A stretch of 64,000 nt of DNA from an uncultured archaeon. GTDB taxonomy: Archaea > Nanobdellota > Nanobdellia > Pacearchaeales > GW2011-AR1. This document shows, piece by piece, positions 27,597 to 64,000 of this stretch. Numbering within the stretch: the first letter of the stretch is position 1; the number at the start of each line of letters is the position of its first letter. Location: positions 17,173-81,172 of the forward strand of contig CAIKMX010000037.1 in the NCBI GenBank assembly GCA_903828655.1. Reading direction: 5' to 3'. The notes under the pieces were generated by a model. That model was not told the origin of the DNA, did no database searches, and was given only the letters and a program-made list of their open reading frames with translations. Position numbers and translations under genes: made by a program.

Positions 27597-27929
27597 TTAT
27601 TTGTCTATTGCTTCGTAGCCTCTAAGTTCTATGCCATTATAGAGTTCCATGGCGAGCTTTTCTGCTTCTTCAGTCTCACCTTCTATCCTTATTTCTAGTC
27701 TTGCTCCTTTTGAAGTTCCTACTCTTTGCATTATTTGCATAATTCTCTTTCCATCAGCAGGTATTTTTTGGCCTCCGTCTGAGGTTAGGGTTACTTTTAC
27801 ATTATATTTTGTGCAAGCATCTACGATTTGCATAGAAGGTCTGGCATGTAAACCTTGTTTGATGTTTACTCTTGCAGAGAAAATTGTGCAATCGTTTTCT
27901 CTTCTTATTCCTGGAATTTCTGGTGGCAT
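27597..27929 (-). CDS. ptsH: HPr-family phosphocarrier protein
   Basis: GLHARPS (active-site His), then the conserved KSIM-like IMQIMQRVGTSKGARLEIRIEGETEEAEKLAMEL. It has a roughly 15-aa N-terminal extension. Confidence 0.7.
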   Translation of the reverse strand: MPPEIPGIRRENDCTIFSARVNIKQGLHARPSMQIVDACTKYNVKVTLTSDGGQKIPADGKRIMQIMQRVGTSKGARLEIRIEGETEEAEKLAMELYNGIELRGYEAIDK

Positions 27930-40198: not shown

Positions 40199-41095
40199 CT
40201 ATCTGTATTTTGTGTATTCTTTTTGTCTTGCAGTTATTCTTGCTACATAGGTTTTTGTTTCTCTTGAGCTATTTTCCCCAGTTACAAGTGGAAGAGCCAT
40301 TGAAACTCCGTCCAGGGAATCTTCTGATTGACCTTTCAAGTATTCAATATTAACTGTCTTTTTCTTTTTTTCTCCTTTTTTTGTGTGATAAGTTATCTCA
40401 CATGTTTTTTCTCCTTGGTTGGATTTTCTAATCATCTTTCTTGCAGTGAATATGTTCCCGTATCCTGCATTGAATGCTGCAAGTGCAAGTTTTGTTCTTT
40501 CTTCTTCGCTGATTCTTGTTCCTGGAAAATAATTATACATTCTTTGCATGTATCTTGTTCCTGCTTCTATTGCTTTTTCAGGAATGAGCATATCTTCATG
40601 GTTGTAACCTAAATCTTTTGCAGTTCCTTTCATAAGTTGCATTAGTCCAAGTGCGCCGGATTTTGATTTTGCGTTTGGATCAAATCTTGATTCCTGTTCA
40701 ATTTGAGCTTTTATTAAGTTTGCATCTAATCCTCTTTGTGACGCATATTTTTTTATTAGCTCTTCATAATCTGTAGGTTTTGGTTGTGGTTGAGGTTTGG
40801 ATTGAGTCTTCTCTTTTTTTGTCTTTATTTCTAAAGTTCTTTCATTGGCTTTTTCTGGCTGTATCGTTAATTCTACTTCTTGTTCTAATTCGCTTGGTTC
40901 TTCTGTTCTTGAAGTTGTTGCATTTTCTCTAGTTCCTTTTTCGGGATTTTCTTGTGCATAAATTGCTGTTGGTCTAGCAATGTTGTAGGATATTACTCCT
41001 GTGCCTGTAGCTATAGAACCTAATATTGCTGCGGCTAGCGTTATTCTTGCTATTTTGTATGCATTCTTTATTGTTTGAATTATTCTGTTTGCCAT
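40199..41095 (-). CDS. membrane-anchored lytic transglycosylase (SLT domain)
   Basis: An N-terminal TM helix, a Glu/Pro-rich linker, then ESRFDPNAKSKSGALGLMQLMKGTA...AYNAGYGN (the SLT catalytic Glu and GLMQ motif). Confidence 0.75.
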   Translation of the reverse strand: MANRIIQTIKNAYKIARITLAAAILGSIATGTGVISYNIARPTAIYAQENPEKGTRENATTSRTEEPSELEQEVELTIQPEKANERTLEIKTKKEKTQSKPQPQPKPTDYEELIKKYASQRGLDANLIKAQIEQESRFDPNAKSKSGALGLMQLMKGTAKDLGYNHEDMLIPEKAIEAGTRYMQRMYNYFPGTRISEEERTKLALAAFNAGYGNIFTARKMIRKSNQGEKTCEITYHTKKGEKKKKTVNIEYLKGQSEDSLDGVSMALPLVTGENSSRETKTYVARITARQKEYTKYR

Positions 41096-41298
41096 TGTCT
41101 TTTTTTACTTCTTTTTGATAATTAGTATAGGCGTTTTTAGTATTTAAAGTTTACTATTTGTTGTTTCTTTATAGTAGTTACAATATATGTAATGAGGGAG
41201 ATTGATGAATATTTCTTGGTTTTTCTATCATTTTTCTTGTAATATTTATGGATTTTTATCACGATAGAGTTTATAAATGATATTTCCGTGTTTATCGT

Positions 41299-44200
41299 AT
41301 GAAAGAGGGGGGTGATTTGAGACTTTTTTTGGTGCTTTTTTTAGTTGCTTTTATTTTATTTGTCTCTGTTTTTTCCGCTTCTGTTGTTGATGCTGCGAAA
41401 TTGAAGGTTAGGGGTGTAAAGGCTGGAACTGGAGTATGGGCGGCTTCTGAACCTGATGAGTATGGGATTGTAGAAACTAATCACTGCAATTGGCTTAACA
41501 GAGACTATGAGATTGGAGATAGTTCTTATAACTGGTATTATGGGGATGCCCGAGGGTGCTCCCTTAGCTACGGGGCTAGTGATCCTCCATATTTGAGTAC
41601 GGTTTATGGGGATTTGATGTATGCTGATGGCAGGAGATGGATTGCGAGCGCTTATATTGTGAAAGATCTTAGTGAAAGAGGTGTTGAGAGCTACATAACT
41701 GCAAGCTTAAGGTTTGTCAGCGAGGGAATAAAGCCTGATGGTTCTTTTACTAACCTTAAAATCTCTCCTAGTCAATCTGAGTTTTATTATGAGAGATGGG
41801 AGAACCGTGCAATATGTCTTTCTTCGTTGTGTGGCCCCTTTAGTGTTATTCCAATTTGTTCCGGATGTGCTCTTGATGGGACAAAATTGATAGCTAAGGA
41901 TAGCGTATCAAACTGTGATTTAACTGAAGCGACGGTAGAGGTAGTAGGTTTTGATAAGGCTTGCGGGGATCTTGATCCGGGCACTTTTACTCACATAGAA
42001 AAAGTTAGCGGAACGGATCAGTACCTCCCCCCTTATTTTTCTTATCCTGATGGTGGGAAACAATTTGTTGACATTGGAGCCAGCAATTGCGATGCAATTT
42101 TAACATCTTACGCGCCTTTTGATCATGTACCCTCTGCTGATGGAAATGGATGTGATATTTATTTCAACAATCTTGATTATAAAGGGGGGGGTTCTTCGAT
42201 TTTTGGGAATAGAGCAGTTTTTCATTCTAGAAGTCCTTTAATTTTGTTAAAGTATCGCCCGTCTGGACAATCCGAAGTTGGAGTGATGTTCGATGCGAGC
42301 TATGATCCTTTTGGTCTTTCCCAATACCAGACTCCTGTAAGCATCGGTTTTGGAATGAAGTTTTCAAAAACCTCTCAGGCTTCCGAGGTAATTTCTTCCA
42401 GAGGAATTAATGAGTATAGTAATTATGTTCCTAGCGAGATGACTCCTGTTGAGGTTAGTACTGAGATTGACAGTCATAAGAGATTTGTTCTAGTTGCGGA
42501 TGCTTGGTTGTCTGCTAAGCAGATTGGGCAAGGAGCTTCTTCATGTAGCGATTGGGTCGTAAAGGCAGTCATAAGAGATTATTTCCAAAATTCAGAGGAT
42601 TTCACATCAAAGTGCGGAGGAATTACGACTACGACTCCGACGGAAGATACAAGTCCTAAAGAAAATGAATGTAAGGATGGTGAAAAGAGAGAATGTTATA
42701 CTGGTTCTACGGCAACTGCCGGAGTGGGTATTTGCATGAAGGGATTTAATTCTTGTTTATTCGGTAAGTGGCAGACAATGAGTGATGGGGGTTATATGTG
42801 TTTTAATGAAGTTACTCCTGGAAAAGAGATTTGTGATGGGATTGACAATGATTGCAATAATGTTGTTGACGATAAATCTTTTGCAGATTTAGATTGTGCA
42901 GATAAGAACAAGGGCAGTGATGGAAATCCTGATACTTCTTACAAATGTTCCAGTGGGAAATGTGTGAAGGAATGTGTTCCTAATTGTAATGGTAAGGAAT
43001 GCGGAAGTGATAGTTGTTTGGGAGTTTGTGGGACTTGTGTTGATGGAAAGACTTGCGGAACGGATGGAAAGTGTGCTGTGATAAAAGAATGCTCTTCAGG
43101 CAATCCGGGTGTCAAGGCTACAAGTCAGTCTGACTGTAATTCTAAGTCTGTCAAGGAGGATAAAAAATATACTTTTACTGGCCCTACTGGAACTCCTCCA
43201 TGTGACTGTGTTGAGAAGAAATGTGATAAGTCTATGGTTGGGCAGCAGATTGCTAGTGATTGTAAGACTGGGCAAACATTTCAGGATTATCCTACATGCA
43301 CGTGTACTGATAGTCCTGTAATTCCTGTTAAATGTGATGAATCTGCCGGATCCATGTGTGCCAGCGATGCTACGTGCAAAAAACTGTTAGGCGAAAAGCC
43401 CGATGCAGTTTCTAGAACATTTTGCAATCCTCAAACATGTACTTGTGCTTCAAGGGTTTGTAGTAAGAGTTCTTTAAGTGGTCATCCTCCGGATGAATGC
43501 GATGGAGATTATGATTGTCAGACTAAATATGGTATTGATTATGTTTGTGATCCTTTAAGTTGTAAATGTACTCCGGGTGTTTGTGGTCCGGGTGTTGGTG
43601 GTGGGAAGGTTAAATCTGATTGCCAATCTGGGGAAACTTTTTTTGGTTATCCTGTGTGCAAGTGTGATTATGGGGCCCCTCTGTTCTCGGTTGTGAGAGA
43701 TAATACTAAGAAGAGAGTTATTGATACGGGAGATCAACTTATTACTGACCCTACTAAAAAGACAGATTATGTTTATCTCGAATCTACAGATAAGTTTTAT
43801 TGTGATTTAGATTTCTTGGGTGAAGGCTATTTCTCGGGTGAAAGCCTTTTGCGGAGAGGTTATAAGATTGCTCAGACCGAAGTAAGTGCTCCCTCTCTAG
43901 GTAAATATGCATCTACTACTCTTGATAGTATTTACTTGGAGGCAAAAGATGATAATGGCAAGACGATTAAATATTATCTAAGCAATCAAGATCGTAGCCC
44001 TATTCTAAATAGGTGGAAGTGGTATTCCATTGATCAAAATCTTCTTTATAATGGGCCAGTTAATGATCCTAACAATGTTTTTAGTAAGCAGGACTTTTTT
44101 GATTACCAAGCTAATGCTGGAGATTTCTTCGGAAGAGAGGTTACTTGCAATGTTCAGTTGATTGCACCTTCAGAGACCTATAAGTCTGGGGTTTATGAAA

Positions 44201-47200
44201 CTAGAACTTCTAAACCGGTTGTTATAATCCCAAGAAATATAAAGAATCCGGATTATTATAAAAAGATTAGTAAGGCATTGTTCTTGTTCTCGGATGTTGA
44301 CTGGAAAAAAGCGTTGCAGTATATGCCGGTTATTAATACTGTAAAAGATATTGGTGGAACTAATTGTTTGAATATTCTTACTAATTCTCTTCAGTCTTTT
44401 TCTTCAACATCTAAATCCAAATGCTCTTATCCTTTGATTGTTTATAATTCTCCTACACTGGCAGAGAATTCTAAGTCTAAGATGGAGATATCTTCAGAAA
44501 AATCTTGGGCGTTAAAAATTGATTCTAGCATTGATGACTTTTTGGGAAAATCTAATCTTTATACCCCTGATACGATTTTTATCTCGGATATACTTGATAA
44601 AAAATATATTAATGCTCCTAAAGGGGCTGTATTTGATAGTAGAATAAGTTCGAGTTATGGTTCTGCTGTTAGCTCGGCTTGGAAGAATTATGGTGTTGTT
44701 ATTTTGGTCAATAAAGATGATAGTGAGGCTCTTATAAAAGCTGCGGAACTTGGCGTTTTTTTTGATGCACCTATTGCTATTGCAGATGATTCTGATTCTA
44801 ATTTTAAAGACCTAATTTCTAATAAACTTGTTATTAGTGTTGGTAGCTCTAAGAAAGGATTTGATGTTGTTGGATTGGATAATAAGCCCTCTAGTATTTT
44901 GAAAGACAATTTTAAAACTTCTGTGGGGCTAATTTATAATACTCCTTCAAAAAAGCTTAATCCAACTACTCTTGTCGGAAATGTTGGTCAAACATTTTCA
45001 ACTTTTATTAAAAGTCCAGATAAGATAAGTACTGTTGAGGATTTTTTAATTGTTGCTAAAAAACCAGAGTACATAGCTTTTGTTAATCCTAATGATATAG
45101 ATTCCAAATTTTGCAAGCCATCTGTAGATCATTGTAAGACTTCAATATCTTCTGCTATCTTGGCATCTTCAGATGCCTGGACATCGCACTTTGTTAGTGT
45201 TGATTCTCCTTGGGATTCTAGTAATGTTCAATCAGCTTCATGCAGTGCTTCTTCGGAGGATACTCTTCTGGCTAGAGCGTCGATACTGACCGGGGATCAA
45301 GAAAAGATTTTTAAGAATGTACGGGATGGAATAAGATCCTATGTGGATATTTTTACTGGTCTCGCTGGTGCTACGCCTACGGGTGCAGCTATCCTTGCTT
45401 CTCCAACACAAATTGGAACTGAACAGGTTTTTGTTCGTTCTTGCAGCGGTTATTGTAAAGAATACTCTAATATTGATTTATTGACAAAACAATATTTTTT
45501 AGATGATGATGGAAAACCCTTGCCTAAGTTGGATCCTGCAGATGTTTTTAGGGCATATTCTTTTGATATCGCGAATACGTTTTCTTATTCCAACAAATTG
45601 ATTTTTGATGCTAAACCTCAGTGCCCTCAAATGAGTTTAGAGGGGGGCTATGCTAATAATGCTGTTAACAAACTTCCTTCTTATGTAGGTTATCTGTTCG
45701 GGATGGTTAATAGTGACTGGAATCCTTCTTGGCTTCTCAAATATGATGCAGATTCAGTAATATCTCGTTCTTATAATGGTGGTAAGGTTTTTAAGTCCCC
45801 TGCGGATCTTGAGTTGTTTCTTCAGAAACAACCTCTCACAAGGATTAAAGGAAATAATGGCGATCTTCTTAGCTGCTATCTTCAATATCCCTGGCATCTG
45901 TCTTATGGGGGCGAGGGTTTTAAGTTGAAGATGTCTGACTTTAAAATCAATGATGATAAACAGAAGGCAGCGATTGTTTACTATTACTGGCTTATGAACG
46001 GTATAAGATATGGCTCTTTGGGAGCATATGAGAGTATTGCTACTATTGATTCTTTCCTGCAAAAAACAAAAGGGACTCCAGGGTATATGTCTGAACCTTC
46101 TGATTCTTCTACTGAATGGCTAAGGAAATACTTTAAGGACGATATAACTATCAAGATTAGTGAACTTAAGTCTCAAGGAGCTCTTAAAGAGGGACCTGAA
46201 AAGTTCGATAATTTAGTTCAGGAAGTTAGCTGGGGGCTTTCTATGCGTCAGTATTTTCTAGATAAAAAAAATGAAAAGGCTGTTGCATGTGGGCGCTATA
46301 TTGCCTTAATAGAGAGGGATTATGCTAAGTGGTATAGAAATAAGCCAATAGACTTTTTTGTTGATTGCTATGGGACAGGTAAACAAGAACATGGAATTGA
46401 TGATTATACCTCTAATTTGGGTGAGCGTCCCGAAGTACCTCTTGAGGTACGTAATAAAATGGGGGCCTTGGTTCGTGATGCAATGAATAGTAACGCTGAA
46501 TACAGGAAGTTCAATGAGATTTTTAAGGCACTATATCCTATGGCATTTGCTACTAAGTTTGAGAAGTCCGTTAAGTCTTATTATGAGGGAAGACCTACAA
46601 AGGAGTCAGAGTTTCCATATTTTTTGGCGCAGACTCTGATCGAGCAGAAAAAATCATTTAATTCACAAATTGATCTTGGGAAGGTGCCCAAAACTTTTAG
46701 TTTGACTAGCGAGGGTTATTTAGGTAAGGTGCAGTCTGTTGTCAGAAATGCTTTGAAAGAACAGCTTTTGGAGAATAGAAAAGAGATGGTAAAATATATC
46801 CAGGATGCTAACGATGCAATAGAGTGCATTCATACTGACGCAGTTGGGATGGATCCTCTTAAGGGACATTACAACAAGTGCAAAGAGAATGTAGATAATG
46901 TTCTAAAAAGGAGCCCTACTGTATCTGATTTTACTTCACAAAGATTGATTCGCTTGAAGAATAACCCTTCTCAGGCGAATTCAGATGCTGAGACAATTTT
47001 GTCTCAAAAGGAAATTACTGCTTCATATTATTTGAAGACAATGCCGGATGTAGTGGATATGACCAAGTTGAATGAAGAGGCTAAAGAGGTTGTAACTAAT
47101 TTTGCTATTAGTGCAGGTTTAACTATTGCAACTATGGGCATGTCTCAGGCGATTATAAATGCAAGAACTTTTATAGCTCTTCAAAAGGTTCCAGGGATTA

Positions 47201-49779
47201 CCGCTGTTGGGAGAGGGGCTGCAGTTCTAAGAGCAGCAATAGTCTTGGGACCTGATGCTTATTTTGCTTTTGAGGGAATTTCTAATGCTAACAAAGTTTG
47301 TAGTGATGTAAATATTAACCAGCTTGATAGTGTTATCGGCGGGGGTATTAATACACAACAGAAATATACTTTGGGGCCTAATGTTATCTCGGATTATTCT
47401 GCTTGTCATACTGCGATATTTATGGCCTCGGTTAATTTTGTAACGATGGCTCCATTTTGGATTGGCAAACCAGATCTTAGGGTGGTGAATCAATTTTCAA
47501 AGAGCTACTCTAATAATGTTTTGGTTAAAGCATTGGCTAGGCAGGATGACGCGATACAAAAGATAGCTGTTGCAGAATCAAAACTTAATATTGTGAAAAA
47601 AAACAGCAAATCGACTCATGATGAGATTGTGGCGGCCGAGAAAGAAGTAACTAAAGCAGAAAATGTTGCGAAAACCGTTTGGAAAAATGAGGTATTGACT
47701 GCGGCTAGGGGTGAGGCGTTGCCGTTCCTTCCCAATTCGGTAGACGATCTTGTTAACTCTGCAGGTAATTCTATCTGGAAGCCTATATCGACTTCTAAGA
47801 AGGATATTAAAATTACTCCAAATGTTCTTGATGAGGCAAAGATAGCCCAATTTTTAGCGCAGCAGAAGAAAGTCAATCCAAATTTTGTTCCAGTTTGGGA
47901 AAAATTAATCGCGCATATGAGGGAAAGAAGCATTGTCCCGCAAGAGGTTTATGATTCAGCACTTAGAGAGGCTACTCTCGCCTTAAGAAGGGAACTAGAA
48001 GCGCATCCAGATGTCCCCTATATTGTTTTGTGGGATGATGGTCCACGTAAGTCTGGGAGATTTATATTTGAAAAGGCTCAGGAGGATTTACAGGGTTTGC
48101 GTCCTCCAGCGCTAAAAATTTACACAGACGATGTAGGTCTGATGGTTCTTAAGGATGAAATTTGTAAGCTTCGTGCAAAAGGTAAAGATCCTATAATTGT
48201 TGTAATGGATGATGCGATATATACTGGGGAACAAATAGGTTTTACAACGTCTAAAGTTCGAAAGATCTATGAGTCTTTGGGTGCCGATAATCCTGAAATT
48301 TTTCTTGCTTCTCCTTTAGTTTCAAGTTTGGCAGAGAATCGTTTAGTTTCTATACCTGGAGTTAAGTTATTCACTTCGGGTAAGTCTAAAGAGTATATGA
48401 AGTCTATAAAAGAGATTCTTACTCCTCAAGAAATGGACATTTTGTCTCTTGGTTCACAGCAGTATGCTACTCTTACAATTCTTCCTACGAAATTTGCTGA
48501 TAGTGTTTCGGTTTATGATTTTCTTGCTAACAAGGTTCTAAAGTATGATTATGAGACTTATCAAAGATATGTTCCTTACAAGATGATTGGAAATTATCGA
48601 ACGGAGGAATTTAATCAGTTTACGCAATATGATGATGCGATTCGTAAATGGCTGGCTCGTAAGAAAGATAATCTTGTCGATGCCTATAATGATGGTACGC
48701 TGCAGGTTCCTTTCAAACCTTCTCCGAGTCCTGGTGGACCTGGTGCGGCGACACCGCCGTCTGTTAGTCCTCCATCAACTACTACTACGCCTGTTATCGG
48801 AGATACAGGCTATGCTACTCCTGTTCCAGTAACTAAAGTTACGGATCCTTCTTATACTGGCACAGGGGTTATGGAGCCTCCGATAATTCCTATTCCAGTT
48901 CCTAAGCCTGTTCCGGTGAAATGTCCTGTAATTGATTTTTCTCCTAAGGCTGCTTCCCTGTATAGCCTTGTTGATGATGATGCTATAGTAAGTTTAGCTG
49001 AATCAGTTATTGGAAGAGAGATTACAGATTCTAAAATGAGACAAGCAATAATTAATGCTCACAATGAACTTGATAACACTAAAAAGGCTAAGATTCTTTT
49101 GGATGCCGGATTTAATTCTACAATTCCTCGTAGTGATCCTCTTTCTGGGGAGGTTAGAAAATTGCTTGATAGCGGGGTTTGTGGTCCTCTAGACTATTCA
49201 AAAATTTTGCCTTATATGGTCCGTTCAAATTTTAAGACTGAATTTGCTGATGCTTGGACAAAGACCTCTGGATTTTTTGTTAATCCTAGGGATCAAACTA
49301 AGGGTTTTTTGATTGGAAAGGTTACGTCAGGAGATTCTGGTCCGGTTTTGCAATCTATATATGGAGACAATCAAGTACTCTTGAATTTTTATGGATCACA
49401 TCTTGCTAGCGTTCCAGTTGCCGTAAAAACAAAACTGAAGCCTGGTGCGGATATAGAACAGCTTCTAATAAATCTTGATTATAAATTTGCTGGTCCTAAT
49501 AATGAAGCGAACTTTATTGACACTTTGATAAAAAAAGGTTTTGATAAACCGAAGACTCTTAAGTCCGGTAGGGCAGTTAAAAATAGGGCTATTGACATTG
49601 AAATAACTTATCCTGCACCTGACGCTACTGGGAAGATGGTGGATTATGTTCAGGAGTTTGAGCTTGAGTTTGATTCTTCTTCATATTCTAGTGCGGTAGC
49701 CGCTTCAAGAAGTGGTTGTTCTGTTAATCTTGAACTTACACATATTTTTCCAAATAAAAACGCAGTAAGGTTGCCTTAG
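41299..49779 (+). CDS. giant (2826 aa) secreted Cys-rich multidomain surface protein
   Basis: Leader MKEGGDLRLFLVLFLVAFILFV. A Cys-rich block includes CDGIDNDCNNVVDD (MopE-like metal-binding motif) and CDKSMVGQQIASDCKTGQTFQDYPTCTC. There is a Pro/Thr-rich linker near aa 2470 and a PRTase-like IVVMDDAIYTGEQ segment. The long ORF is uninterrupted. Confidence 0.8.
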   Translation: MKEGGDLRLFLVLFLVAFILFVSVFSASVVDAAKLKVRGVKAGTGVWAASEPDEYGIVETNHCNWLNRDYEIGDSSYNWYYGDARGCSLSYGASDPPYLSTVYGDLMYADGRRWIASAYIVKDLSERGVESYITASLRFVSEGIKPDGSFTNLKISPSQSEFYYERWENRAICLSSLCGPFSVIPICSGCALDGTKLIAKDSVSNCDLTEATVEVVGFDKACGDLDPGTFTHIEKVSGTDQYLPPYFSYPDGGKQFVDIGASNCDAILTSYAPFDHVPSADGNGCDIYFNNLDYKGGGSSIFGNRAVFHSRSPLILLKYRPSGQSEVGVMFDASYDPFGLSQYQTPVSIGFGMKFSKTSQASEVISSRGINEYSNYVPSEMTPVEVSTEIDSHKRFVLVADAWLSAKQIGQGASSCSDWVVKAVIRDYFQNSEDFTSKCGGITTTTPTEDTSPKENECKDGEKRECYTGSTATAGVGICMKGFNSCLFGKWQTMSDGGYMCFNEVTPGKEICDGIDNDCNNVVDDKSFADLDCADKNKGSDGNPDTSYKCSSGKCVKECVPNCNGKECGSDSCLGVCGTCVDGKTCGTDGKCAVIKECSSGNPGVKATSQSDCNSKSVKEDKKYTFTGPTGTPPCDCVEKKCDKSMVGQQIASDCKTGQTFQDYPTCTCTDSPVIPVKCDESAGSMCASDATCKKLLGEKPDAVSRTFCNPQTCTCASRVCSKSSLSGHPPDECDGDYDCQTKYGIDYVCDPLSCKCTPGVCGPGVGGGKVKSDCQSGETFFGYPVCKCDYGAPLFSVVRDNTKKRVIDTGDQLITDPTKKTDYVYLESTDKFYCDLDFLGEGYFSGESLLRRGYKIAQTEVSAPSLGKYASTTLDSIYLEAKDDNGKTIKYYLSNQDRSPILNRWKWYSIDQNLLYNGPVNDPNNVFSKQDFFDYQANAGDFFGREVTCNVQLIAPSETYKSGVYETRTSKPVVIIPRNIKNPDYYKKISKALFLFSDVDWKKALQYMPVINTVKDIGGTNCLNILTNSLQSFSSTSKSKCSYPLIVYNSPTLAENSKSKMEISSEKSWALKIDSSIDDFLGKSNLYTPDTIFISDILDKKYINAPKGAVFDSRISSSYGSAVSSAWKNYGVVILVNKDDSEALIKAAELGVFFDAPIAIADDSDSNFKDLISNKLVISVGSSKKGFDVVGLDNKPSSILKDNFKTSVGLIYNTPSKKLNPTTLVGNVGQTFSTFIKSPDKISTVEDFLIVAKKPEYIAFVNPNDIDSKFCKPSVDHCKTSISSAILASSDAWTSHFVSVDSPWDSSNVQSASCSASSEDTLLARASILTGDQEKIFKNVRDGIRSYVDIFTGLAGATPTGAAILASPTQIGTEQVFVRSCSGYCKEYSNIDLLTKQYFLDDDGKPLPKLDPADVFRAYSFDIANTFSYSNKLIFDAKPQCPQMSLEGGYANNAVNKLPSYVGYLFGMVNSDWNPSWLLKYDADSVISRSYNGGKVFKSPADLELFLQKQPLTRIKGNNGDLLSCYLQYPWHLSYGGEGFKLKMSDFKINDDKQKAAIVYYYWLMNGIRYGSLGAYESIATIDSFLQKTKGTPGYMSEPSDSSTEWLRKYFKDDITIKISELKSQGALKEGPEKFDNLVQEVSWGLSMRQYFLDKKNEKAVACGRYIALIERDYAKWYRNKPIDFFVDCYGTGKQEHGIDDYTSNLGERPEVPLEVRNKMGALVRDAMNSNAEYRKFNEIFKALYPMAFATKFEKSVKSYYEGRPTKESEFPYFLAQTLIEQKKSFNSQIDLGKVPKTFSLTSEGYLGKVQSVVRNALKEQLLENRKEMVKYIQDANDAIECIHTDAVGMDPLKGHYNKCKENVDNVLKRSPTVSDFTSQRLIRLKNNPSQANSDAETILSQKEITASYYLKTMPDVVDMTKLNEEAKEVVTNFAISAGLTIATMGMSQAIINARTFIALQKVPGITAVGRGAAVLRAAIVLGPDAYFAFEGISNANKVCSDVNINQLDSVIGGGINTQQKYTLGPNVISDYSACHTAIFMASVNFVTMAPFWIGKPDLRVVNQFSKSYSNNVLVKALARQDDAIQKIAVAESKLNIVKKNSKSTHDEIVAAEKEVTKAENVAKTVWKNEVLTAARGEALPFLPNSVDDLVNSAGNSIWKPISTSKKDIKITPNVLDEAKIAQFLAQQKKVNPNFVPVWEKLIAHMRERSIVPQEVYDSALREATLALRRELEAHPDVPYIVLWDDGPRKSGRFIFEKAQEDLQGLRPPALKIYTDDVGLMVLKDEICKLRAKGKDPIIVVMDDAIYTGEQIGFTTSKVRKIYESLGADNPEIFLASPLVSSLAENRLVSIPGVKLFTSGKSKEYMKSIKEILTPQEMDILSLGSQQYATLTILPTKFADSVSVYDFLANKVLKYDYETYQRYVPYKMIGNYRTEEFNQFTQYDDAIRKWLARKKDNLVDAYNDGTLQVPFKPSPSPGGPGAATPPSVSPPSTTTTPVIGDTGYATPVPVTKVTDPSYTGTGVMEPPIIPIPVPKPVPVKCPVIDFSPKAASLYSLVDDDAIVSLAESVIGREITDSKMRQAIINAHNELDNTKKAKILLDAGFNSTIPRSDPLSGEVRKLLDSGVCGPLDYSKILPYMVRSNFKTEFADAWTKTSGFFVNPRDQTKGFLIGKVTSGDSGPVLQSIYGDNQVLLNFYGSHLASVPVAVKTKLKPGADIEQLLINLDYKFAGPNNEANFIDTLIKKGFDKPKTLKSGRAVKNRAIDIEITYPAPDATGKMVDYVQEFELEFDSSSYSSAVAASRSGCSVNLELTHIFPNKNAVRLP

Positions 49780-49803
49780 GCATTTGCACACTAAAAGAAA
49801 TAG

Positions 49804-50436
49804 TTATCCTCTTTTTGAAATAATTTCTTCATATCTTCTTGTAGTTTGCATGTACTGCTCTTCTATATCTCTATCTGCACTATCTTGGGCTTTAGCCATT
49901 CTTATAGCTCTTTGGTGGTTGGGTTCTGTTTTTGTACTGGATGAAATAAGTACATTGGCCTTCTCTGCAAGCCAGGATCTTCTTGATAAAGATTCAAGGT
50001 CTTTTGGGTCTCTTTCTTTGTTTCTTTTTACTGCTTCTTCTAAGACTGTTGCAATCTCTTCTTTGTATTTTTGGTCCATTTCTCTTGGGGAGATATTTAC
50101 TAGGATGTTTACGGCTGCTTCAAATTCTTCAGCAGTATAATCTCTTTGGAAAAATTCTTTTATTCCGGATAGAATTGGTTTACTATCTGCTTCATTTAAT
50201 TGATAAAGCTCTTGTATTATCCTTAGAAATCTGCTTCCTTCTGAAACATCAGGATTTATCTCTCGGCATTTGCATGCAAGGGCCGTAAAATTTTTACCCA
50301 AGTTGTAGCGTATTCTTTCCGCGTCATCACCAGTTATTTGTTTAACTCTTGAATAAAAATCTTGTGGATTAGTATCTGCGAACATTCTTTGAATTGCTTC
50401 TCTTGCGGTTCTTGTCGGAGTGTATTTTTTTGCCAT
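49804..50436 (-). CDS. hypothetical helical protein, last gene of the RHH-ARH operon
   Basis: 210 aa, 5 nt downstream of the preceding gene on the same strand. Confidence 0.5.
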   Translation of the reverse strand: MAKKYTPTRTAREAIQRMFADTNPQDFYSRVKQITGDDAERIRYNLGKNFTALACKCREINPDVSEGSRFLRIIQELYQLNEADSKPILSGIKEFFQRDYTAEEFEAAVNILVNISPREMDQKYKEEIATVLEEAVKRNKERDPKDLESLSRRSWLAEKANVLISSSTKTEPNHQRAIRMAKAQDSADRDIEEQYMQTTRRYEEIISKRG

Positions 50437-50441
50437 TTTTT

Positions 50442-51224
50442 TTATTGATCTCTGTTATCTCTTTTTGCTCTTTCTTTGCACATTTGCAGATATTCTTGGG
50501 ATAATTTTTTTGATCCTAGTGCTTCGTCTCGGTCTTCAATTGAATCTAATCTTGTTGCAACTTCAGCTAGGAATTGTTCTGTTGTTTGATCAGGGTCATT
50601 TTCACTGTAAGATTTTACATGGCCCTTTAGATCCGCCATAAACTCTATAATCTTTTTTTCTTCCTCAGATTTTTCTGATTTTCTTCCGACTACCTTTTCG
50701 GTTCTGCCCAAGTTATGTGCGTAGCCTGCGATTACTCTTTTGAATTTTTCTAAAGGCATTTCATATGCTGCTCTAATAACTTCTCTACCTCCCCAAACTA
50801 CTAGTCTCTTGATATCTTCTACAGGGGGTGCCAGATACTCATTTTCACCGAGATAGAAAGAAGCGTCAGTTAGTGCTCTCTCTAGTTCGTCCCCTCTTCT
50901 ATTAAGTCCCTTTTGAAAAATATCTTTGTAAAATGAATAGTGTCTAACCATTACGCTAAATTCTGAAACTTGTTTTGCTAGTTCCACGTTTCCAGCTTCG
51001 GTACTTTTTTTCTGTGTGTGTATTATTGCATTCATAGCTCTGGCTCTTGCTGCGTAAAAGTCATTAAACTGACCCATATTGCTTATCCAAACTATTTCTT
51101 CTGTCTTACCGACAAGATATGGCTTTATTCCTTCTCCAGTATAAGTTCTTCCAGTTGTTGGATCTTCAATTATTAGTGTTCCCATACCTACTCTTTGTTC
51201 TAGAGGCTTTTTATGATTTTCCAT
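50442..51224 (-). CDS. hypothetical protein, possibly an ADP-ribosyltransferase-like partner of the adjacent glycohydrolase
   Basis: 260 aa. Candidate Arg (GRTYTGEG), S-T-x (KKSTEAG) and E-x-E (LGENEYL) triad with R-S-E-like spacing. This is weak and needs profile confirmation. Confidence 0.45.
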   Translation of the reverse strand: MENHKKPLEQRVGMGTLIIEDPTTGRTYTGEGIKPYLVGKTEEIVWISNMGQFNDFYAARARAMNAIIHTQKKSTEAGNVELAKQVSEFSVMVRHYSFYKDIFQKGLNRRGDELERALTDASFYLGENEYLAPPVEDIKRLVVWGGREVIRAAYEMPLEKFKRVIAGYAHNLGRTEKVVGRKSEKSEEEKKIIEFMADLKGHVKSYSENDPDQTTEQFLAEVATRLDSIEDRDEALGSKKLSQEYLQMCKERAKRDNRDQ

Positions 51225-51225
51225 G

Positions 51226-52185
51226 TTATTTATTTTGATACTCCATTGTTCTTTTAACTAAGTCTTCAGAAATTTTTTCAAGGCCTTTTCTATTTTCTAT
51301 AACATTTATCCATCTTTGTGGAATTGCTTGAATGCCGTTGTATGCTCCACTTATTGCGCCTGCTATACATCCTGTGGAGTCTGAATCTCCGTTGTGGTTT
51401 ACTGCAGTTATTATAGTTTCTTCAAAATCTTTTGGACTTCTCAGAAATGAGTATAGTGCTATTGCGACAGCTTCATGTCCTTTCCATCCTTCTCCGAGGG
51501 TCGTTATGGCTTGATGTTTGTCTTTCATTGTTAGTGCTTGTTCAACTTGTTTAATTTTTTCAACAAATTCTCTTGAATCTTCTCCAAAACGAGATTTGGC
51601 TAGAGTGACTAATCTAGAGATATATGTGTTTGGATCTTCTTCTTTTAGCGCTAAGGAAGTGAGGTAGGCTGTTGCTACTCCTGAAGCTACTGCTGTAGGG
51701 TGTGCATGAGTGCATACACTTGATGCTTCTGCTATTTCTACTAATTTTTCTGGATGATTGTAAAATACTAATCCTATTGGTGCCGTTCTCATTGCGGCTC
51801 CGCAACCTCTTGAAACTACTCCTGATTTTTTCCAGTCTCTGCCCATCTTGAGATTTTCTACTCCCTGGATGCATGTTGATCCAGGAGCACGATTATTATC
51901 TGGGCTGTTTAACCATGTGATGAATTCTCCTCTTACTAAGGCCATTGTTTTTTCTAAATCATATTCTATTGGTGTAGCTATTAGAGCATTCGCAACTGCT
52001 ATGCTCATTTGAGTATCATCACTGTATCTTGCTATTGTACTTCTGCTTAAGTTCATTTCTTTGGTATCTGTTTCTCCATTCCAAACTGGCTTTTTTGTAA
52101 ATTCTATTGGATACCCCAAGGCATCGCCTACTGCTAAGCCTATGATTGTTCCTCTGATTTTTCCTTCTAGTTTTTCTTTTTCCAT
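51226..52185 (-). CDS. ADP-ribosylglycohydrolase (DraG/ARH family)
   Basis: Has IIGLAVGDALGYPIEF, YSDDTQMSIAVANAL, HNGDSDSTGCIAGAISGAYNG, the conserved ARH metal-binding Asp/Thr clusters. Confidence 0.8.
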   Translation of the reverse strand: MEKEKLEGKIRGTIIGLAVGDALGYPIEFTKKPVWNGETDTKEMNLSRSTIARYSDDTQMSIAVANALIATPIEYDLEKTMALVRGEFITWLNSPDNNRAPGSTCIQGVENLKMGRDWKKSGVVSRGCGAAMRTAPIGLVFYNHPEKLVEIAEASSVCTHAHPTAVASGVATAYLTSLALKEEDPNTYISRLVTLAKSRFGEDSREFVEKIKQVEQALTMKDKHQAITTLGEGWKGHEAVAIALYSFLRSPKDFEETIITAVNHNGDSDSTGCIAGAISGAYNGIQAIPQRWINVIENRKGLEKISEDLVKRTMEYQNK

Positions 52186-52192
52186 GTTATTT

Positions 52193-52390
52193 TTATTTGA
52201 TTTCTGTCTTTCCGTTCATCAATTTATTTAGAGCAAATTCAACAAAATGGCTTTTATTTCTAAAAGAGCCATTGCTAATATAATCGTCTATTCTTTCTAT
52301 TGTTTCTTTTTCTATGCTGACGCTGAGCTTTTGTTTCATCGTATAATTTCGTATAATATGCGCTTTATAAACTTTTCTATTTGTTGTCAC
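52193..52390 (-). CDS. ribbon-helix-helix (CopG-like) transcriptional regulator
   Basis: 65 aa. KLSVSIEKETIERIDDY (beta-strand plus helix A) and SHFVEFALNKLM (helix B). Confidence 0.65.
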   Translation of the reverse strand: MTTNRKVYKAHIIRNYTMKQKLSVSIEKETIERIDDYISNGSFRNKSHFVEFALNKLMNGKTEIK

Positions 52391-52458
52391 TTTAAAGTTG
52401 TTATAAATAATCTCCCTTGGATGATAAGGTTTTTTAACTGGATTGTTTAAGAGTTTTT

Positions 52459-53279: not shown

Positions 53280-55478
53280 TTGTTTTGGCTTATGAGAAAA
53301 AGGGGTTTTTTTGGGTCGCTTATTCTGATAGTTGTCGTTCTGATTATATTTGGGCTTGTTTATTCAGGTTATGGAAACAATATTCTAAATGCTTTGACCG
53401 GAAAGGTTGTTGGGGGGGATGCAAAAAAAGTCATAAAAGAAAATTGCTATGTGGTTCAGATTGAGGATAAGAGCGAAGTAAAAGAGAAGATTTATGTTTC
53501 TGCTTATCCTAAGAGTGTTGAAGATAATGTTTTGAGCAATGCTTTTTTATCCAAGGTGACAATTAATGGATATAGAACTGATGAAGATGATACTTCCGAT
53601 GTTAAACTATGGAATGTTATAGGATTGTGTGATTCTGAAACTGTAGGCTATTCTTCTTTGTGGAAAGCATCAGAATCTTTGTCTCCTGTCCCTTCTTTTA
53701 CACAGACTTTTACTCCGACCTCTACTGGAAGTCCAACCTCTACGAGTGGTGCTGAAGTTAGTGCTTATTTAAGTGAGGATTATATTAAAAAAGTTGAGAA
53801 AGAAAAACTGTTTACTCCTAAAGAACCTGTAAGCCTTTTTGATGAGATAACTTGTGAGCTGAGAATTCCAAAAGGAGAAAGTTTTGACAAGAAAGATTAT
53901 CTTGGGAGTTTATTTATCAAAATTAGTGGAGGGAAGACAAAAGATATATTGAGTGGTGAAAAGTTAACATATAATCGGATTGTAAATGGGGGGGGTGTTG
54001 ACTATGCAGTTTATAGCTTTGAAAAACTTCCTATGTCTGCTTATTCTTCTTCAAATGAAGATTTTGAGGATTGGGTTAAATCAGATAATATTTTTTGCAG
54101 AGTTAGCGTTGATGGAAAGATGGTTGAATCTCCTAAAGTTGCAATGGATAATGAATGTGTACATTTGTGGGGGAAGGATAACGCAAAATTTAATATTATC
54201 TCTCTTCGTGATAGTTCTAAAAATTCTAAAAGTCTTTTTAATCTAAGAACGTTTTTTGTAGATCCTGGATCAAATTCTATTACTTTTACTAAGATCGAGC
54301 CATTTGCTACATATAAGAGCAATTTTGCGTATTATATGGATATGACAAAACATAAACTTGACGGATGGTTCTTTGAGAAGAATAGGGGATTCTTTGAAGT
54401 AAGTTCTTGCAAGAAGCCAAGTTCTACCCTTGTGGTTGTTTTTGAGAGGGGGTTTTCTAGTGCGGAGGATAAAAAATATGTAGGTCTGGCGTATCAATCT
54501 GCGGGGGTAATACTTCTTAATCCGGCAAAGATTTCCATTGGAGCGGGGATACATGAGTATGGACATACTTTTTGTGGTTTGTCTGATGAGTATCTTTATG
54601 GAAAAGATGGGTTTGGTTCTAGATCTATGCCTGTGAGTTCTGATAAAAACTGCAGAAAAAACAAGAATGCCTTTTTGCCTTATGGGGATGTGGGGATTAT
54701 AGACTGTACCGATACTTCGCACTATAAGTCTTCAAAAGACAGCATAATGAATAATTATAATGATTTATATTTTAATGTAATTAGTGCAGGTTATTGTATA
54801 ACTAAGATTACTGGGAAGAGTGTTCCACAAAGTTTTCAAGAGGCTTGTGGAATGGGGGGAGTAACTAAACCAAGAGTCTGTCCTATTTCAGATGATGTTG
54901 CTAGGGTGGCTATGCAAGCTACAGCGAGGGTTATTGCTTCGGATTCATCTAGTAAAAATTGTTATGTAAGGCTTGATATAAATGAGAATAAAACCTCTGA
55001 TGATAAAATTGTATTTAGTTTGAATAGCCAGGAAAATTTAAATGAGAGTTATGAAGGTTCTGTTTCTTTTTATGATTCTAATATTAGTTCTGATTATATT
55101 TTGAAAACTTATGATTCTAATAATTTGCTAAATCAATTTTCTATTTCTTCTGCACGATTTAGCTATATTGATGGCACTAATGAAAATAATAAATCTATTG
55201 GGGGGATTAGTGAATCGGATTATGGGATTATAACTACTTATATTCCTTATGATTCAAAAATCTCTTCAGTTAGAATTGATAATAACGGAAGCGAGAGTGT
55301 TATTAATGTTGATGTAAACAGTTTTAGATGTGAGCAGAAAAAGTCTAGTAATTATAACTATTTGGTTATTTTTATTTTAATTCTTGTTGTTCTTGCTGTT
55401 TTATGGGCTTTCAGAAAGTTTTTTGGTCGTAATAATCTTGTTGAATTTTATAGATCTAAGCTTGAAGCAACTAATTAG
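53280..55478 (+). CDS. membrane-anchored paralog-family protein carrying a HExxH zincin motif and a C-terminal TM anchor
   Basis: The N-terminal TM and conserved family domain (ENCYVVQ...YVSAYPKSVEDNVLSNAFLSKVTINGYRT...WNVIGLCDSETVGYSSL) are shared with 61691 and 63694. GIHEYGHTFCGLSDEY is at 54552-54566. C-terminus NYNYLVIFILILVVLAVLWAFRKFFGR. Confidence 0.6.
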   Translation: MFWLMRKRGFFGSLILIVVVLIIFGLVYSGYGNNILNALTGKVVGGDAKKVIKENCYVVQIEDKSEVKEKIYVSAYPKSVEDNVLSNAFLSKVTINGYRTDEDDTSDVKLWNVIGLCDSETVGYSSLWKASESLSPVPSFTQTFTPTSTGSPTSTSGAEVSAYLSEDYIKKVEKEKLFTPKEPVSLFDEITCELRIPKGESFDKKDYLGSLFIKISGGKTKDILSGEKLTYNRIVNGGGVDYAVYSFEKLPMSAYSSSNEDFEDWVKSDNIFCRVSVDGKMVESPKVAMDNECVHLWGKDNAKFNIISLRDSSKNSKSLFNLRTFFVDPGSNSITFTKIEPFATYKSNFAYYMDMTKHKLDGWFFEKNRGFFEVSSCKKPSSTLVVVFERGFSSAEDKKYVGLAYQSAGVILLNPAKISIGAGIHEYGHTFCGLSDEYLYGKDGFGSRSMPVSSDKNCRKNKNAFLPYGDVGIIDCTDTSHYKSSKDSIMNNYNDLYFNVISAGYCITKITGKSVPQSFQEACGMGGVTKPRVCPISDDVARVAMQATARVIASDSSSKNCYVRLDINENKTSDDKIVFSLNSQENLNESYEGSVSFYDSNISSDYILKTYDSNNLLNQFSISSARFSYIDGTNENNKSIGGISESDYGIITTYIPYDSKISSVRIDNNGSESVINVDVNSFRCEQKKSSNYNYLVIFILILVVLAVLWAFRKFFGRNNLVEFYRSKLEATN

Positions 55479-61690: not shown

Positions 61691-63313
61691 ATGAGAAAGA
61701 AGATAAGATATTCTCCTGTGAAAAATAAAAGAAGTAAATTTGGGTGGATTGTTGGAATTTTAATTATTCTCGCTATTATTGGTTTTTCTTTATATTTAGA
61801 ATATGGAAGCAGTCTTTTTTCTTTTCTAACTGGAAACGCCGTTGCTTCTGAAGGTGCTAAACAAATGAGGGAGAATTGTTATATTGTTAGTGCAATTGTA
61901 GGAAAGAGCGATAGCCTTATTACTGTTTATGTTTCTGCTTATCCTGGAAGTGTTGAGAATAATGTTTTGAGCAATGCTTTTTTGTCTAAGGTGACGATTG
62001 ATGCGTATAGGACTAATGAACCTGGGGAGACTTCACGTTCATGGAATGTTATAGGATTATGTGATTCTGAAACTGTAAGCCATTCTTCTTTGTTGAAGAT
62101 GACGAGTTCTGATGATTCGAGTTCTAGCTCGACTTCTAGTCTAACGTCTGGTGAAGGGCAGGCATCATGTCTTGATATTGATTGGGAATCTTTTATTTAT
62201 GATTCTAGTGTTTATGCATGCAGTTGTACTGGTGAATCATCTTCGTCAAGTTCTTTAAGTAGTTCGGATATTATTTCTCCTTCAATTACTGGGGCTGCGA
62301 TAACAGGATATAGTGTTTCCAGCGACGCCCAGAATGCGGTTCTAAAAAGAGGAATATATATTTCTCTTAGTGGGAGGGAGGCATATTATGTTGTGAATGA
62401 TGATGGGGCAATACAGAAACTAAATTGGGGTAAAATGAAGGATATAAAATTAGTTAGTTCATCAGTCGGTACAGGGGGATATAGCATTCAGACTAATATG
62501 AAAGCCTTGGATAATCTCAAGGATTCATTTGAGGCTTTGCCTTATGCCGAGGAGAATACTGTTCGTGACTTGTTAAGAAAAGATTTCTATTTTGGTACTC
62601 GAAGGGATTTGGAGAGTGAAATGAATGGAAAGTCTCCGGGCGTTCTTGGAGCTTTTGACTATGCAATGCTTGCAATGGGTAAGGGAATTAGTTCTGGCGA
62701 TCCTGAAAAGGGAGATTGTCCCCTTAGTATTTATGTTTCAAAGTATTATTATAGTAATGATAAACTAGACGGAGATTGGCTTATGGCTTTGGTAAGGGTT
62801 AAGGGAATAGAGGCTGAATATGTAAAGAATGAGATTGCGCGTACGCCAGTTGCTGAAAAGACGATTGCATGTCCTGAAAAACAGATTCCAAAGTGTGAGA
62901 TTATACCGGAGTGTACAAAAAAGAAGGATTGCGAGATTAAACCTCCTTTCCATAAGGATTATGTTCTTTGTGTGGCAAGTAAGTGTGAGGAGGATAAGGA
63001 AAAAGCAAAGCTTGTACTTGGTGCGATGATTCCTGGATTATTGCCTTCGGATGATTATATTGCTCTTGGTAAAGATGGGTTTTTTATTTCAACTGATCCT
63101 AAGAAGCCTAAGGTTTTTGCTTTGGATGTGAAAGTTGAAACGTTAGATGTGATTGAAAACTCTTTTGTCAAGGGAGATGTTTTAGCAGGTTTTATTATTA
63201 AGAAATCTGTCAGCGGGTCTAATGGGCTTTCTCATCTTGTTGTGCTTAGGGTAGGATTGGTTGGTCCACCTAGTAAGCCTAAACTTAGTTATGTTACTAT
63301 TAGCAATTCTTAG
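61691..63313 (+). CDS. membrane-anchored paralog-family protein (Ser-rich)
   Basis: TM helix IVGILIILAIIGFSLYL, then ENCYIVSAIVGKSDSLITVYVSAYPGSVENNVLSNAFLSKVTIDAYRT...WNVIGLCDSETVSHSSL. The DNA of this block is about 90% identical to 53490-53640. Confidence 0.6.
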   Translation: MRKKIRYSPVKNKRSKFGWIVGILIILAIIGFSLYLEYGSSLFSFLTGNAVASEGAKQMRENCYIVSAIVGKSDSLITVYVSAYPGSVENNVLSNAFLSKVTIDAYRTNEPGETSRSWNVIGLCDSETVSHSSLLKMTSSDDSSSSSTSSLTSGEGQASCLDIDWESFIYDSSVYACSCTGESSSSSSLSSSDIISPSITGAAITGYSVSSDAQNAVLKRGIYISLSGREAYYVVNDDGAIQKLNWGKMKDIKLVSSSVGTGGYSIQTNMKALDNLKDSFEALPYAEENTVRDLLRKDFYFGTRRDLESEMNGKSPGVLGAFDYAMLAMGKGISSGDPEKGDCPLSIYVSKYYYSNDKLDGDWLMALVRVKGIEAEYVKNEIARTPVAEKTIACPEKQIPKCEIIPECTKKKDCEIKPPFHKDYVLCVASKCEEDKEKAKLVLGAMIPGLLPSDDYIALGKDGFFISTDPKKPKVFALDVKVETLDVIENSFVKGDVLAGFIIKKSVSGSNGLSHLVVLRVGLVGPPSKPKLSYVTISNS

Positions 63314-63362: not shown

Positions 63363-63662
63363 TTATTTTTCAAGTCCGCTTTGATTTGCATTTGCAGGTC
63401 TTGAATACTGTATGTTTTGATAGGTATTTTGGGTGCTTTGATTGTAGGCATTTATGTCTTCGCAAGAACATCTAATGCTGCTGCAGAATATGCTGGCTGC
63501 AATAACTACTGCTGTGCCCAGAGCCGTTGCTATCCTTGATGTTTTTCTTGTTCTTGATTTTTCTAAGTCATAAAATCCGTTTGCCATATTATTCTTCAAG
63601 ATATATTGTTTATAAGTCTTTCTATTTGTTATCACTATATAGTTACTATGAATATTGAACAT
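63363..63662 (-). CDS. small hypothetical membrane protein
   Basis: 99-aa ORF with one hydrophobic helix (IATALGTAVVIAASIF). Weak. Confidence 0.25.
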   Translation of the reverse strand: MFNIHSNYIVITNRKTYKQYILKNNMANGFYDLEKSRTRKTSRIATALGTAVVIAASIFCSSIRCSCEDINAYNQSTQNTYQNIQYSRPANANQSGLEK

Positions 63663-63693: not shown

Positions 63694-63999
63694 ATGAGAA
63701 AAGGAGGTTTATTGGGGTCGCTTATTTTGATAGTTGTTGTTCTGGCGATATTTGGAATTGTTTATTCTGTTTATGGAAATAGTTTATTTGGTTTTATGAC
63801 CGGAAATGTTGTTGCTAATGGGGGGGTTGTAAATATTGCTGAGGAATGTTTTGTTCTTCAGTCAGAGGATAGCGATGGAAAAATCATCGGGCCAATTTAT
63901 GTTGTGGCCTATACTGGGAGCAGTGAGTATGTAGAGCTGAACAAACTGTTGCCTGTCGGGGCGATTAAAACTGGGGATGTTATTTCTGGTTATAGAAGT
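63694..63999 (+). CDS. N-terminal fragment of a third member of the membrane-anchored paralog family (runs off the window)
   Basis: Has MRKGGLLGSLILIVVVLAIFGIVYSVYGNSLFGFMTGNVVANGG...EECFVLQSED...IYVVAYTGSSEYVELNKLLPVGAIKTGDVISGYRS, the same architecture as the 53280 and 61691 N-termini. Confidence 0.55.
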   Translation, partial: MRKGGLLGSLILIVVVLAIFGIVYSVYGNSLFGFMTGNVVANGGVVNIAEECFVLQSEDSDGKIIGPIYVVAYTGSSEYVELNKLLPVGAIKTGDVISGYRS

Positions 64000-64000
64000 G

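Follow-up and report, generated by a model that had tools for sequence, protein, structure and literature searches.

A candidate native operon around an ADP-ribosylglycohydrolase in an uncultured DPANN-type archaeon

Members of the ADP-ribosylglycohydrolase (ARH) family have been described as immunity proteins and antitoxins. Imm-ARG proteins are ARH immunity proteins strictly linked to ADP-ribosyltransferase (ART) toxins with the R-S-E triad (PMC3482391). DarG3, the ARH-like antitoxin of the DarHTG system, is encoded in a three-gene operon (PMC13069673). Here we consider a cluster of four minus-strand genes in a stretch of 64,000 nucleotides (nt), called the window below, from contig CAIKMX010000037.1 of an uncultured archaeon of the Pacearchaeales (assembly GCA_903828655.1). 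The cluster encodes a small candidate ribbon-helix-helix (RHH) protein, an ARH of 319 amino acids (aa) and two further open reading frames, ORF3 (260 aa) and ORF4 (210 aa). A preliminary description took this cluster for a possible ADP-ribosylation toxin/immunity or defence module. Our own reading, to which we give slightly less than an even chance, is that of a native, regulated and leaderless operon around an active ADP-ribosyl hydrolase. In such an operon ORF3 would be a partner of the enzyme, ORF4 an orphan accessory and the RHH protein a locally acquired repressor, and the enzyme writing the modification would be encoded elsewhere or be foreign.

The 319-aa protein is a full-length ARH. 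It matches the entire PF03747 profile (positions 1-287 of 287, E=3.4e-74, 250.5 bits against a cut-off of 26.2), in agreement with its earlier assignment to the DraG/ARH family. The motifs looked for were the binuclear metal site, [ST]-D-D-T plus D-x-D-[ST], and the N-terminal catalytic Glu following GDALG. The corresponding residues E28, D56-D57-T58 and D267-x-D269-S270 are invariant in an alignment of 21 ARH homologues, and these metal and catalytic motifs align with those of MJ1187, the Thermus thermophilus ARH and ARH1. The enzyme looks catalytically competent, with a complete binuclear-metal site. The nearest solved structures are, in this order, MJ1187 (1T5J, E=3.9e-32), the Thermus ARH, ARH1, DraG and ARH3. 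The motifs SDDT, RAPG, GCGAAMR, TH-HPT and GDSDST are common to the window ARH and the arginine-specific ARH1, and to judge from these shared motifs the window enzyme may be specific for arginine. Its nearest relatives are annotated as Woesearchaeota, Nanoarchaeia or simply 'archaeon', and at 45-53% identity the family extends over DPANN archaea and several bacterial phyla. A scan of genome contigs with a back-translated ARH pattern gave no match.

The layout of the cluster is as first described, with gaps of 7, 1 and 5 nt between the four ORFs in the ORF list. Codon usage was scored with a model trained on 19 long ORFs of the same 64-kb window. The in-frame log-odds of the four ORFs are 0.23-0.39 (0.23 for the RHH-like gene, 0.27 for ORF4) versus 0.14-0.44 for the training genes, and the five other frames are negative in each case. 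With a GC content of 0.365-0.378 the region is in line with its surroundings. Since the codon usage fits that of the window genes, all four are real and native genes, with no recent insertion. The start sites of the ARH gene (52185) and of ORF3 (51224) have a near-identical context, ATAACATGGAAAA, and by eye no Shine-Dalgarno-like sequence is seen there. The common context suggests translational coupling of the two genes by termination-reinitiation.

A syntenic region was found in L001, a contig of 1971 bp from the 'archaeon' metagenome-assembled genome (MAG) GCA_037128155.1. It contains an ARH gene whose product is 73% identical to that of the window and, 2 nt downstream, the gene of P0123, a homologue of ORF3 with 42% identity. 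Thus ORF3 evolves approximately twice as fast as the ARH. The divergent secreted-protein gene is also in its place (35% identity, E=2e-7). The RHH gene is missing, and the promoter of L001 drives the ARH gene directly; for this reason the ARH and ORF3 form the conserved core of the locus and the RHH gene is a lineage-specific addition. To judge from this comparison, the RHH gene was inserted or lost in one lineage and does not belong to the core. The gene neighbourhood is kept for the ARH-ORF3 pair and not for the RHH gene, and the earlier suggestion that the latter is the typical head of a toxin-antitoxin (TA) operon finds no support in the sole syntenic relative. The native codon usage and the retained synteny with the divergent secreted-protein gene argue against a mobile island. 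By the housekeeping genes of the window and the annotation of the nearest ARH relatives, the locus is part of a DPANN-type archaeal chromosome and not a mobile element.

The intergenic promoter regions of the window and L001, approximately 75 nt long, share about 88% identity and are conserved far above the flanking genes. In L001 the ATG of the ARH gene comes 21 nt after the TATA box GTTTATAAA, with no RHH gene between. In the window the same TATA box (52364-52371) is followed by the ATG of the RHH gene 24 nt on. The start codon is found 21-24 nt past the TATA box in three of the four aligned copies of a promoter cassette described below. By archaeal promoter geometry, this spacing implies that the predicted transcripts are leaderless. 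The stretch between the TATA box and the ATG consists in the window largely of ATTATACG repeats, whereas it is wholly different in L001, where the RHH gene is absent. The 18-mer ATTATACG-AA-ATTATACG has one occurrence in the window against 0.03 expected, and this promoter holds two of the three window copies of ATTATACG. These repeats are a good candidate for the operator of the RHH protein, overlapping the transcription start.

The start of the first gene is most likely the ATG at 52339, yielding a protein of 48 aa, MKQKLSVSIEKETIERIDDYISNGSFRNKSHFVEFALNKLMNGKTEIK (begins MKQKLSVS). It is preferred because the alternative GTG at 52390 precedes the TATA box and falls within the conserved promoter element. 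The preliminary description had called a CopG-like RHH protein here. The 65-aa form that starts from this GTG is replaced, and the RHH-like identity stands on weak profile matches. These are to DUF6364 (E=0.005, 17.6 bits against the Pfam cut-off of 27.3), CdrS (E=0.096) and a PHROG repressor (E=0.15). A beta-alpha-alpha pattern can be read in the protein by eye; no sequence match was found in the PDB. The 3' end of the gene was also predicted as a gene on L006, an independent contig of 637 bp from the same organism. It is plausible that the 48-aa protein is an RHH-like DNA-binding protein of the CopG/Arc type.

The promoter of the cluster belongs to a cassette of approximately 45 nt, TAACWACTWTAWAGTGAYAACAAATAG followed by N8 and TTATAAA, a pattern that can also be given as AGTGAYAACAAATAG-N8-TTATAAA. 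The window contains three copies against none expected, all on the minus strand (41155-41180, 52378-52403 and 63623-63648), and a further copy lies in the related MAG (L001:245-300). The genes behind the window copies are an SLT lytic transglycosylase gene (40199-41095), the RHH-ARH operon and an ORF for a membrane protein of 74 aa (63363-63587). Each of them is divergent from a gene of a large secreted or anchored protein. A search of metagenome contigs for the cassette gave no matches. The shared cassette suggests co-regulation of the genes behind it, which would form a candidate regulon.

No ART, DarT, toxin, defence or phage family was matched by ORF3 or ORF4 at E<=1 in Pfam, NCBIfam, PADLOC and PHROGs, and neither protein has a sequence match in the PDB. 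In a word-indexed search of 5.8 billion proteins each of them matched only itself. An exhaustive phmmer search of 1.84 billion representatives yielded P0123 as the sole homologue of ORF3. The conservation between the two is centred on the N-terminal 60 residues (60-67% identity) and on the motif WGGREV..AAYE. Scans with the back-translated ORF3 alignment on genome, metagenome and viral contigs, and with ORF4 on viral contigs, gave nothing, and tblastn against phages and plasmids gave no match. ORF3 or ORF4 as a degenerate ARH paralogue was ruled out by hhalign (probability of about 0.1%), as was ORF4 as a paralogue of ORF3 (0.09%); neither has paralogues in the window.

A split beta-sheet is the basis of ART folds. 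The single-sequence AlphaFold models of the two proteins, both of low confidence, are essentially all-helical: ten helices and two 3-residue strands at the N-terminus in ORF3 (pLDDT 54), and ten helices in ORF4 (pLDDT 56). A Foldseek search of the PDB and BFVD with these low-confidence models produced designed helical repeats and 14-3-3-like noise only (E>0.04), and no ART. In the 260-aa protein the preliminary description had pointed to a possible R-S-E triad. The E-x-E motifs of ORF3, ELE, ENE and EEE, correspond to HVE, -DP and TPK in P0123, and its [ST][ST]x motifs, TTG, STE and TTE, correspond to NTG, ITQ and DID; none of the three is kept in either set. Thus the suggested triad is not conserved, and an ART-like fold is not seen in these low-confidence models; the lack of such a fold in predictions had been named in the preliminary description as an outcome that would refute it. 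Among the window ORFs of at least 100 aa, the C-terminal parts of the two giant proteins included, none gave a Pfam match to an ART domain, and the proposed pairing of an ART toxin with an ARH immunity protein finds no support.

Eight loci with ARHs 47-53% identical to that of the window have entirely different neighbours, and no gene in them belongs to an ART family. The neighbours include a YD/RHS-repeat protein, a set of Prok-RING, ThiF and metallophosphatase genes, a second degenerate ARH, HAD and ATP-grasp proteins and a UvrD-like helicase. In five of the eight (L002, L004, L005, L007 and L008) the ARH gene overlaps, or lies 0-62 nt from, a gene of an unannotated protein of 220-340 aa. 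Flanking proteins translated from these five loci and from L003 were compared, together with ORF3 and ORF4, in an all-against-all BLAST search. They proved unrelated (best pair E=0.023), and the idea that the ARH partners are one hidden family was rejected.

Separate observations were made at two of these loci. In L003 (3296-7151) a 52%-identical ARH is encoded in a co-directional cluster Prok-RING_1 - ThiF (E1-like) - ARH - metallophosphatase, which may link this ARH to a ubiquitin-like conjugation system. In L004 (4196-8319), a DPANN-like contig, there are two ARH genes, and the unknown proteins beside them differ. In the second ARH, of 383 aa, the motifs GDALG, DDT and DxD[ST] are lost, as read by eye, and the protein is probably catalytically dead. 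Its neighbour of 224 aa contains Cys/His motifs resembling those of a transglutaminase-like protease.

If ORF3, or ORF4, were an ART-type toxin, the ARH its antitoxin or immunity protein and the RHH protein an autoregulator, the locus would be a TA or defence module. ARHs are indeed known in this role (Imm-ARG, PMC3482391; DarG3, PMC13069673), the genes are tightly coupled, and both the faster change of ORF3 than of the ARH (42% versus 73% identity) and the non-homologous partners of related ARHs are features seen in conflict systems. However, we consider this very improbable, given the lack of any ART, DarT or toxin profile match at E<=1 and of any PADLOC match, the essentially helical models without an ART-like structural match, the loss of the S-T-x and E-x-E candidates in P0123, the missing RHH gene in L001, and the native codon usage and conserved synteny. 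A variant without a canonical ART starts from the recurring pattern of an ARH plus a variable unknown protein. In DPANN archaea this ARH clade might form two-gene modules with hypervariable, mutually non-homologous partners, ORF3 among them. The partners could be effectors of a new fold whose product the ARH reverses, and might make an ADP-ribose-type modification without the canonical ART fold; otherwise they could be decoys or targets in conflicts between symbiont and host or with viruses. This is a speculation to which we assign a very small chance.

Another possibility, which we rate as rather unlikely, is that the ARH is a housekeeping or metabolic hydrolase, acting for example on free derivatives of ADP-ribose such as O-acetyl-ADP-ribose or on another N-glycoside, and that ORF3 and ORF4 are unrelated, lineage-specific proteins co-transcribed with it only through genome compactness. 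The very different contexts of the closest ARH homologues (RHS-repeat, ThiF/Prok-RING, HAD/ATP-grasp, UvrD-type helicase), the spread of the family at 45-53% identity over DPANN archaea and several bacterial phyla, the native codon usage and the density of housekeeping genes in the window all agree with this. However, the ARH-ORF3 pair is kept at 1-2 nt in two genomes despite the 42% identity of ORF3, and a dedicated regulator together with the promoter cassette implies controlled, not constitutive, expression. The cassette is central to a further reading, unlikely in our view and overlapping with the one we favour: the operon would be co-regulated with genes for the cell surface and for attack on cell walls, and the ARH with its partners would shield an episymbiont from ADP-ribosylating attack at host contact or reset an ADP-ribosylation switch. 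The cassette does stand before the SLT and 74-aa membrane-protein genes, each divergent from a large surface gene, in three copies where none is expected, and it is kept in L001. On the other hand, its recurrence could instead reflect duplicated upstream regions of surface genes with paralogous N-termini, with which it may ride along; its targets may just as well be the divergent genes on the plus strand; and there are only three copies in one 64-kb window.

The native operon that we favour has its own weak points. The RHH identity is based on sub-threshold profile matches. The synteny of the ARH and ORF3 is supported by a single contig of 1971 bp, which ends inside ORF3 and does not reach the place of ORF4. 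No fold or family is recognisable for ORF3 or ORF4, and their roles are guesses. The models of both have low confidence (pLDDT 54-56), and over the first 110 residues of ORF3, its conserved N-terminal part, the pLDDT stays below 50 save at residues 21-29. Finally, the substrates of most ARH-family members are unknown, and some may act on small molecules rather than on proteins. All these points weigh against the proposed explanation.

The mechanism suggested by the native-operon reading is as follows. Transcription would start approximately 25 nt downstream of the TATA box, which is preceded by the conserved upstream element, and a leaderless polycistronic mRNA would cover the RHH, ARH, ORF3 and ORF4 genes. 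Repression probably comes from the 48-aa RHH protein, added in this lineage, which would bind the two ATTATACG repeats overlapping the transcription start. The ARH would remove ADP-ribose from a modified substrate, most likely a protein. ORF3, the only co-inherited partner, is fast-evolving and predicted to be cytoplasmic and helical; it is most likely an ARH-binding specificity or regulatory subunit, or else the protected target itself. ORF4 would be a lineage-specific accessory. Since no ART is encoded nearby, the modification would be made by an enzyme encoded elsewhere in the genome, or by that of a host, competitor or virus. Thus the locus may be described as a putative orphan eraser or orphan immunity system.

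If this is correct, the operon adds a further stand-alone ADP-ribose eraser to an archaeal lineage of which little is known, and the value of the result is mainly that of annotation. It also carries a warning: an ARH, an RHH protein and unknown genes do not by themselves indicate a TA system. The kept ARH-ORF3 pair, the fast evolution of ORF3 and the varied partners elsewhere may be a sign of ADP-ribosylation biology yet to be discovered in episymbiotic archaea. Should the variable-partner modules be real, they would be a new class of ADP-ribose conflict system without ARTs, wired here to a regulon for the cell surface and cell-wall attack via the shared cassette. The cassette itself, common to a lytic transglycosylase gene and the gene of a small membrane protein, offers a concrete and testable candidate regulon in an uncultured organism. 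Coordinates of the features of the operon are collected in the table.

Table. Features of the candidate ARH operon, with positions in the window
Feature	Position	Strand	Basis or comment
Upstream promoter element TAACAACTTTAAAGTGACAACAAATAG	52377..52403	minus	~88% identical to L001:245-285, just before the orthologous ARH gene
Archaeal-type TATA box TTTATAAA	52364..52371	minus	read from sequence; kept in 4/4 aligned cassettes
Direct repeat ATTATACG-AA-ATTATACG, 10-bp period, between TATA box and RHH start	52340..52357	minus	18-mer unique in window
RHH-like gene	52193-52390 (65-aa GTG form); 52193-52339 (48-aa ATG form)	minus	ORF list and start re-assignment
ARH gene, 319 aa	51226-52185	minus	full-length PF03747 match
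ORF3, 260 aa	50442-51224	minus	predicted helical, cytoplasmic; conserved ARH partner
ORF4, 210 aa	49804-50436	minus	predicted helical; orphan
T-rich tract CTATTTCTTTT, just past the ORF4 stop, in the 24-nt gap to the 2826-aa ORF	49793..49803	minus	read from sequence

The flanks of the operon agree with the preliminary description. On the 3' side an ORF of 2826 aa is convergent with the operon, with a gap of 24 nt after ORF4; the T-rich tract CTATTTCTTTT in this gap is a possible archaeal terminator. On the 5' side there is a divergent cluster of genes encoding secreted or membrane-anchored proteins of 256, 732, 2046 and 540 aa. The 2826-aa giant protein (41299-49779, plus strand) contains Cys-rich repeats and a weak MopE motif. 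Neither Pfam nor the PDB gave a match to its C-terminal 927 aa, and the giant neighbours were rejected as ART-bearing polymorphic toxins, since the searches recognised no domain in the C-terminal parts of either. A phosphoribosyltransferase-like motif, IIVVMDDAIYTGEQ, can be seen by eye at residues ~2280-2300, in the C-terminal third, where Pfam and PDB give no match.

The membrane-anchored proteins encoded on the plus strand at 53280-55478, 61691-63313 and 63694-64000 share a paralogous N-terminal module of approximately 100 aa. It is 56% identical between the 732-aa and 540-aa proteins; the third gene, which runs off the end of the window, is N-terminally similar by eye. Together the three look like a family of variable surface proteins. 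The SLT gene (40199-41095, minus strand), here in an archaeal genome, encodes a protein of 298 aa with a lytic transglycosylase domain (PF01464, E=5e-27); as a peptidoglycan-cleaving enzyme, this protein could target a bacterial partner or prey.

The window also contains housekeeping genes, among them those of GatD/GatE, deoxyhypusine synthase and several aminoacyl-tRNA synthetases, as well as genes of a DisA-type cyclase, phosphofructokinase and giant surface proteins. The Rfam scan of the window found one tRNA only, and no match in the operon. The DisA-type diadenylate cyclase (DAC and DisA linker; 25431-27529, minus strand) is encoded beside a DHH/DHHA1 phosphodiesterase with a 4-nt gene overlap, and the two make up a pair for synthesis and degradation of c-di-AMP in a DPANN-type archaeon. 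The gene of an HPr-like protein (PF00381, E=3e-15) adjoins the phosphofructokinase gene (27597-27929 and 27942-29174, both on the minus strand). To our knowledge, HPr is unusual in archaea. A dockerin type I domain is present, in this archaeal genome, in each of two window proteins (12424-13620, E=9e-5, and 16802-17980, E=8e-12; both on the plus strand).

Among the described systems, DarHTG requires a DarT DNA-ART and a UvrD-like helicase, and neither is found in the window operon by Pfam or PADLOC; the searches for DarTG and DarHTG gave no match for the operon proteins besides the ARH. The immunity proteins Imm-ARG and Tri1 of the Tre1-Tri1 pair have the same enzyme fold as the window ARH and are likewise enzymatic erasers (PMC3482391). 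The Tri1 profile NF041672 matches the window ARH with E=2e-20, but the score of 72.9 bits against a cut-off of 490 means that it is not a Tri1 equivalog. As the mark of an Imm-ARG arrangement we took an ARH gene that directly follows, in the same direction, a toxin gene with a C-terminal R-S-E ART domain. In the window no ART toxin gene is adjacent, and the neighbouring 2826-aa gene is convergent rather than co-directional and upstream, and has no detectable toxin domain. The precedents of Imm-ARG/Tri1 (PMC3482391) and DarG3 (PMC13069673) all depend on an adjacent ART, and none was found here. The comparison with type II TA systems has a similar outcome: no toxin family was found among the operon proteins, and the RHH gene is absent from L001.

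The remaining comparisons concern single proteins. DraG belongs to the same family (TIGR02662, E=4e-31; PDB 2WOE, E=1e-19), but with 108 bits against a cut-off of 337 the window ARH is not an equivalog, and there are no DraT and no nitrogenase or nif genes in the window. The 48-aa protein differs from the autorepressors CopG, Arc and MetJ in having sub-threshold profile matches only and no PDB match, and is a predicted DNA binder. It resembles them in its length (~45-50 aa), in the N-terminal beta-strand and two helices, read by eye, and in being first in the operon, and the window promoter has tandem 8-bp repeats with a 10-bp period. The ARH1 of human and mouse (3HFW, 6G28, 6IUX) is a eukaryotic stand-alone enzyme of ~357 aa; the window ARH aligns with it in two blocks (E ~3e-20) that include SDDT, RAPG, GCGAAMR, TH-HPT and GGDSDST. 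The closest counterpart with a solved structure, MJ1187 of Methanocaldococcus jannaschii (1T5J), is uncharacterised, with no known substrate or partner and no known RHH or ORF3-like neighbour, and its alignment with the window ARH has several gaps. However, the two proteins are of equal length and match over residues 4-310 (E=3.9e-32), and both carry the motifs GDALG, DDT, GCGAAMR and GD(S/T)DS.

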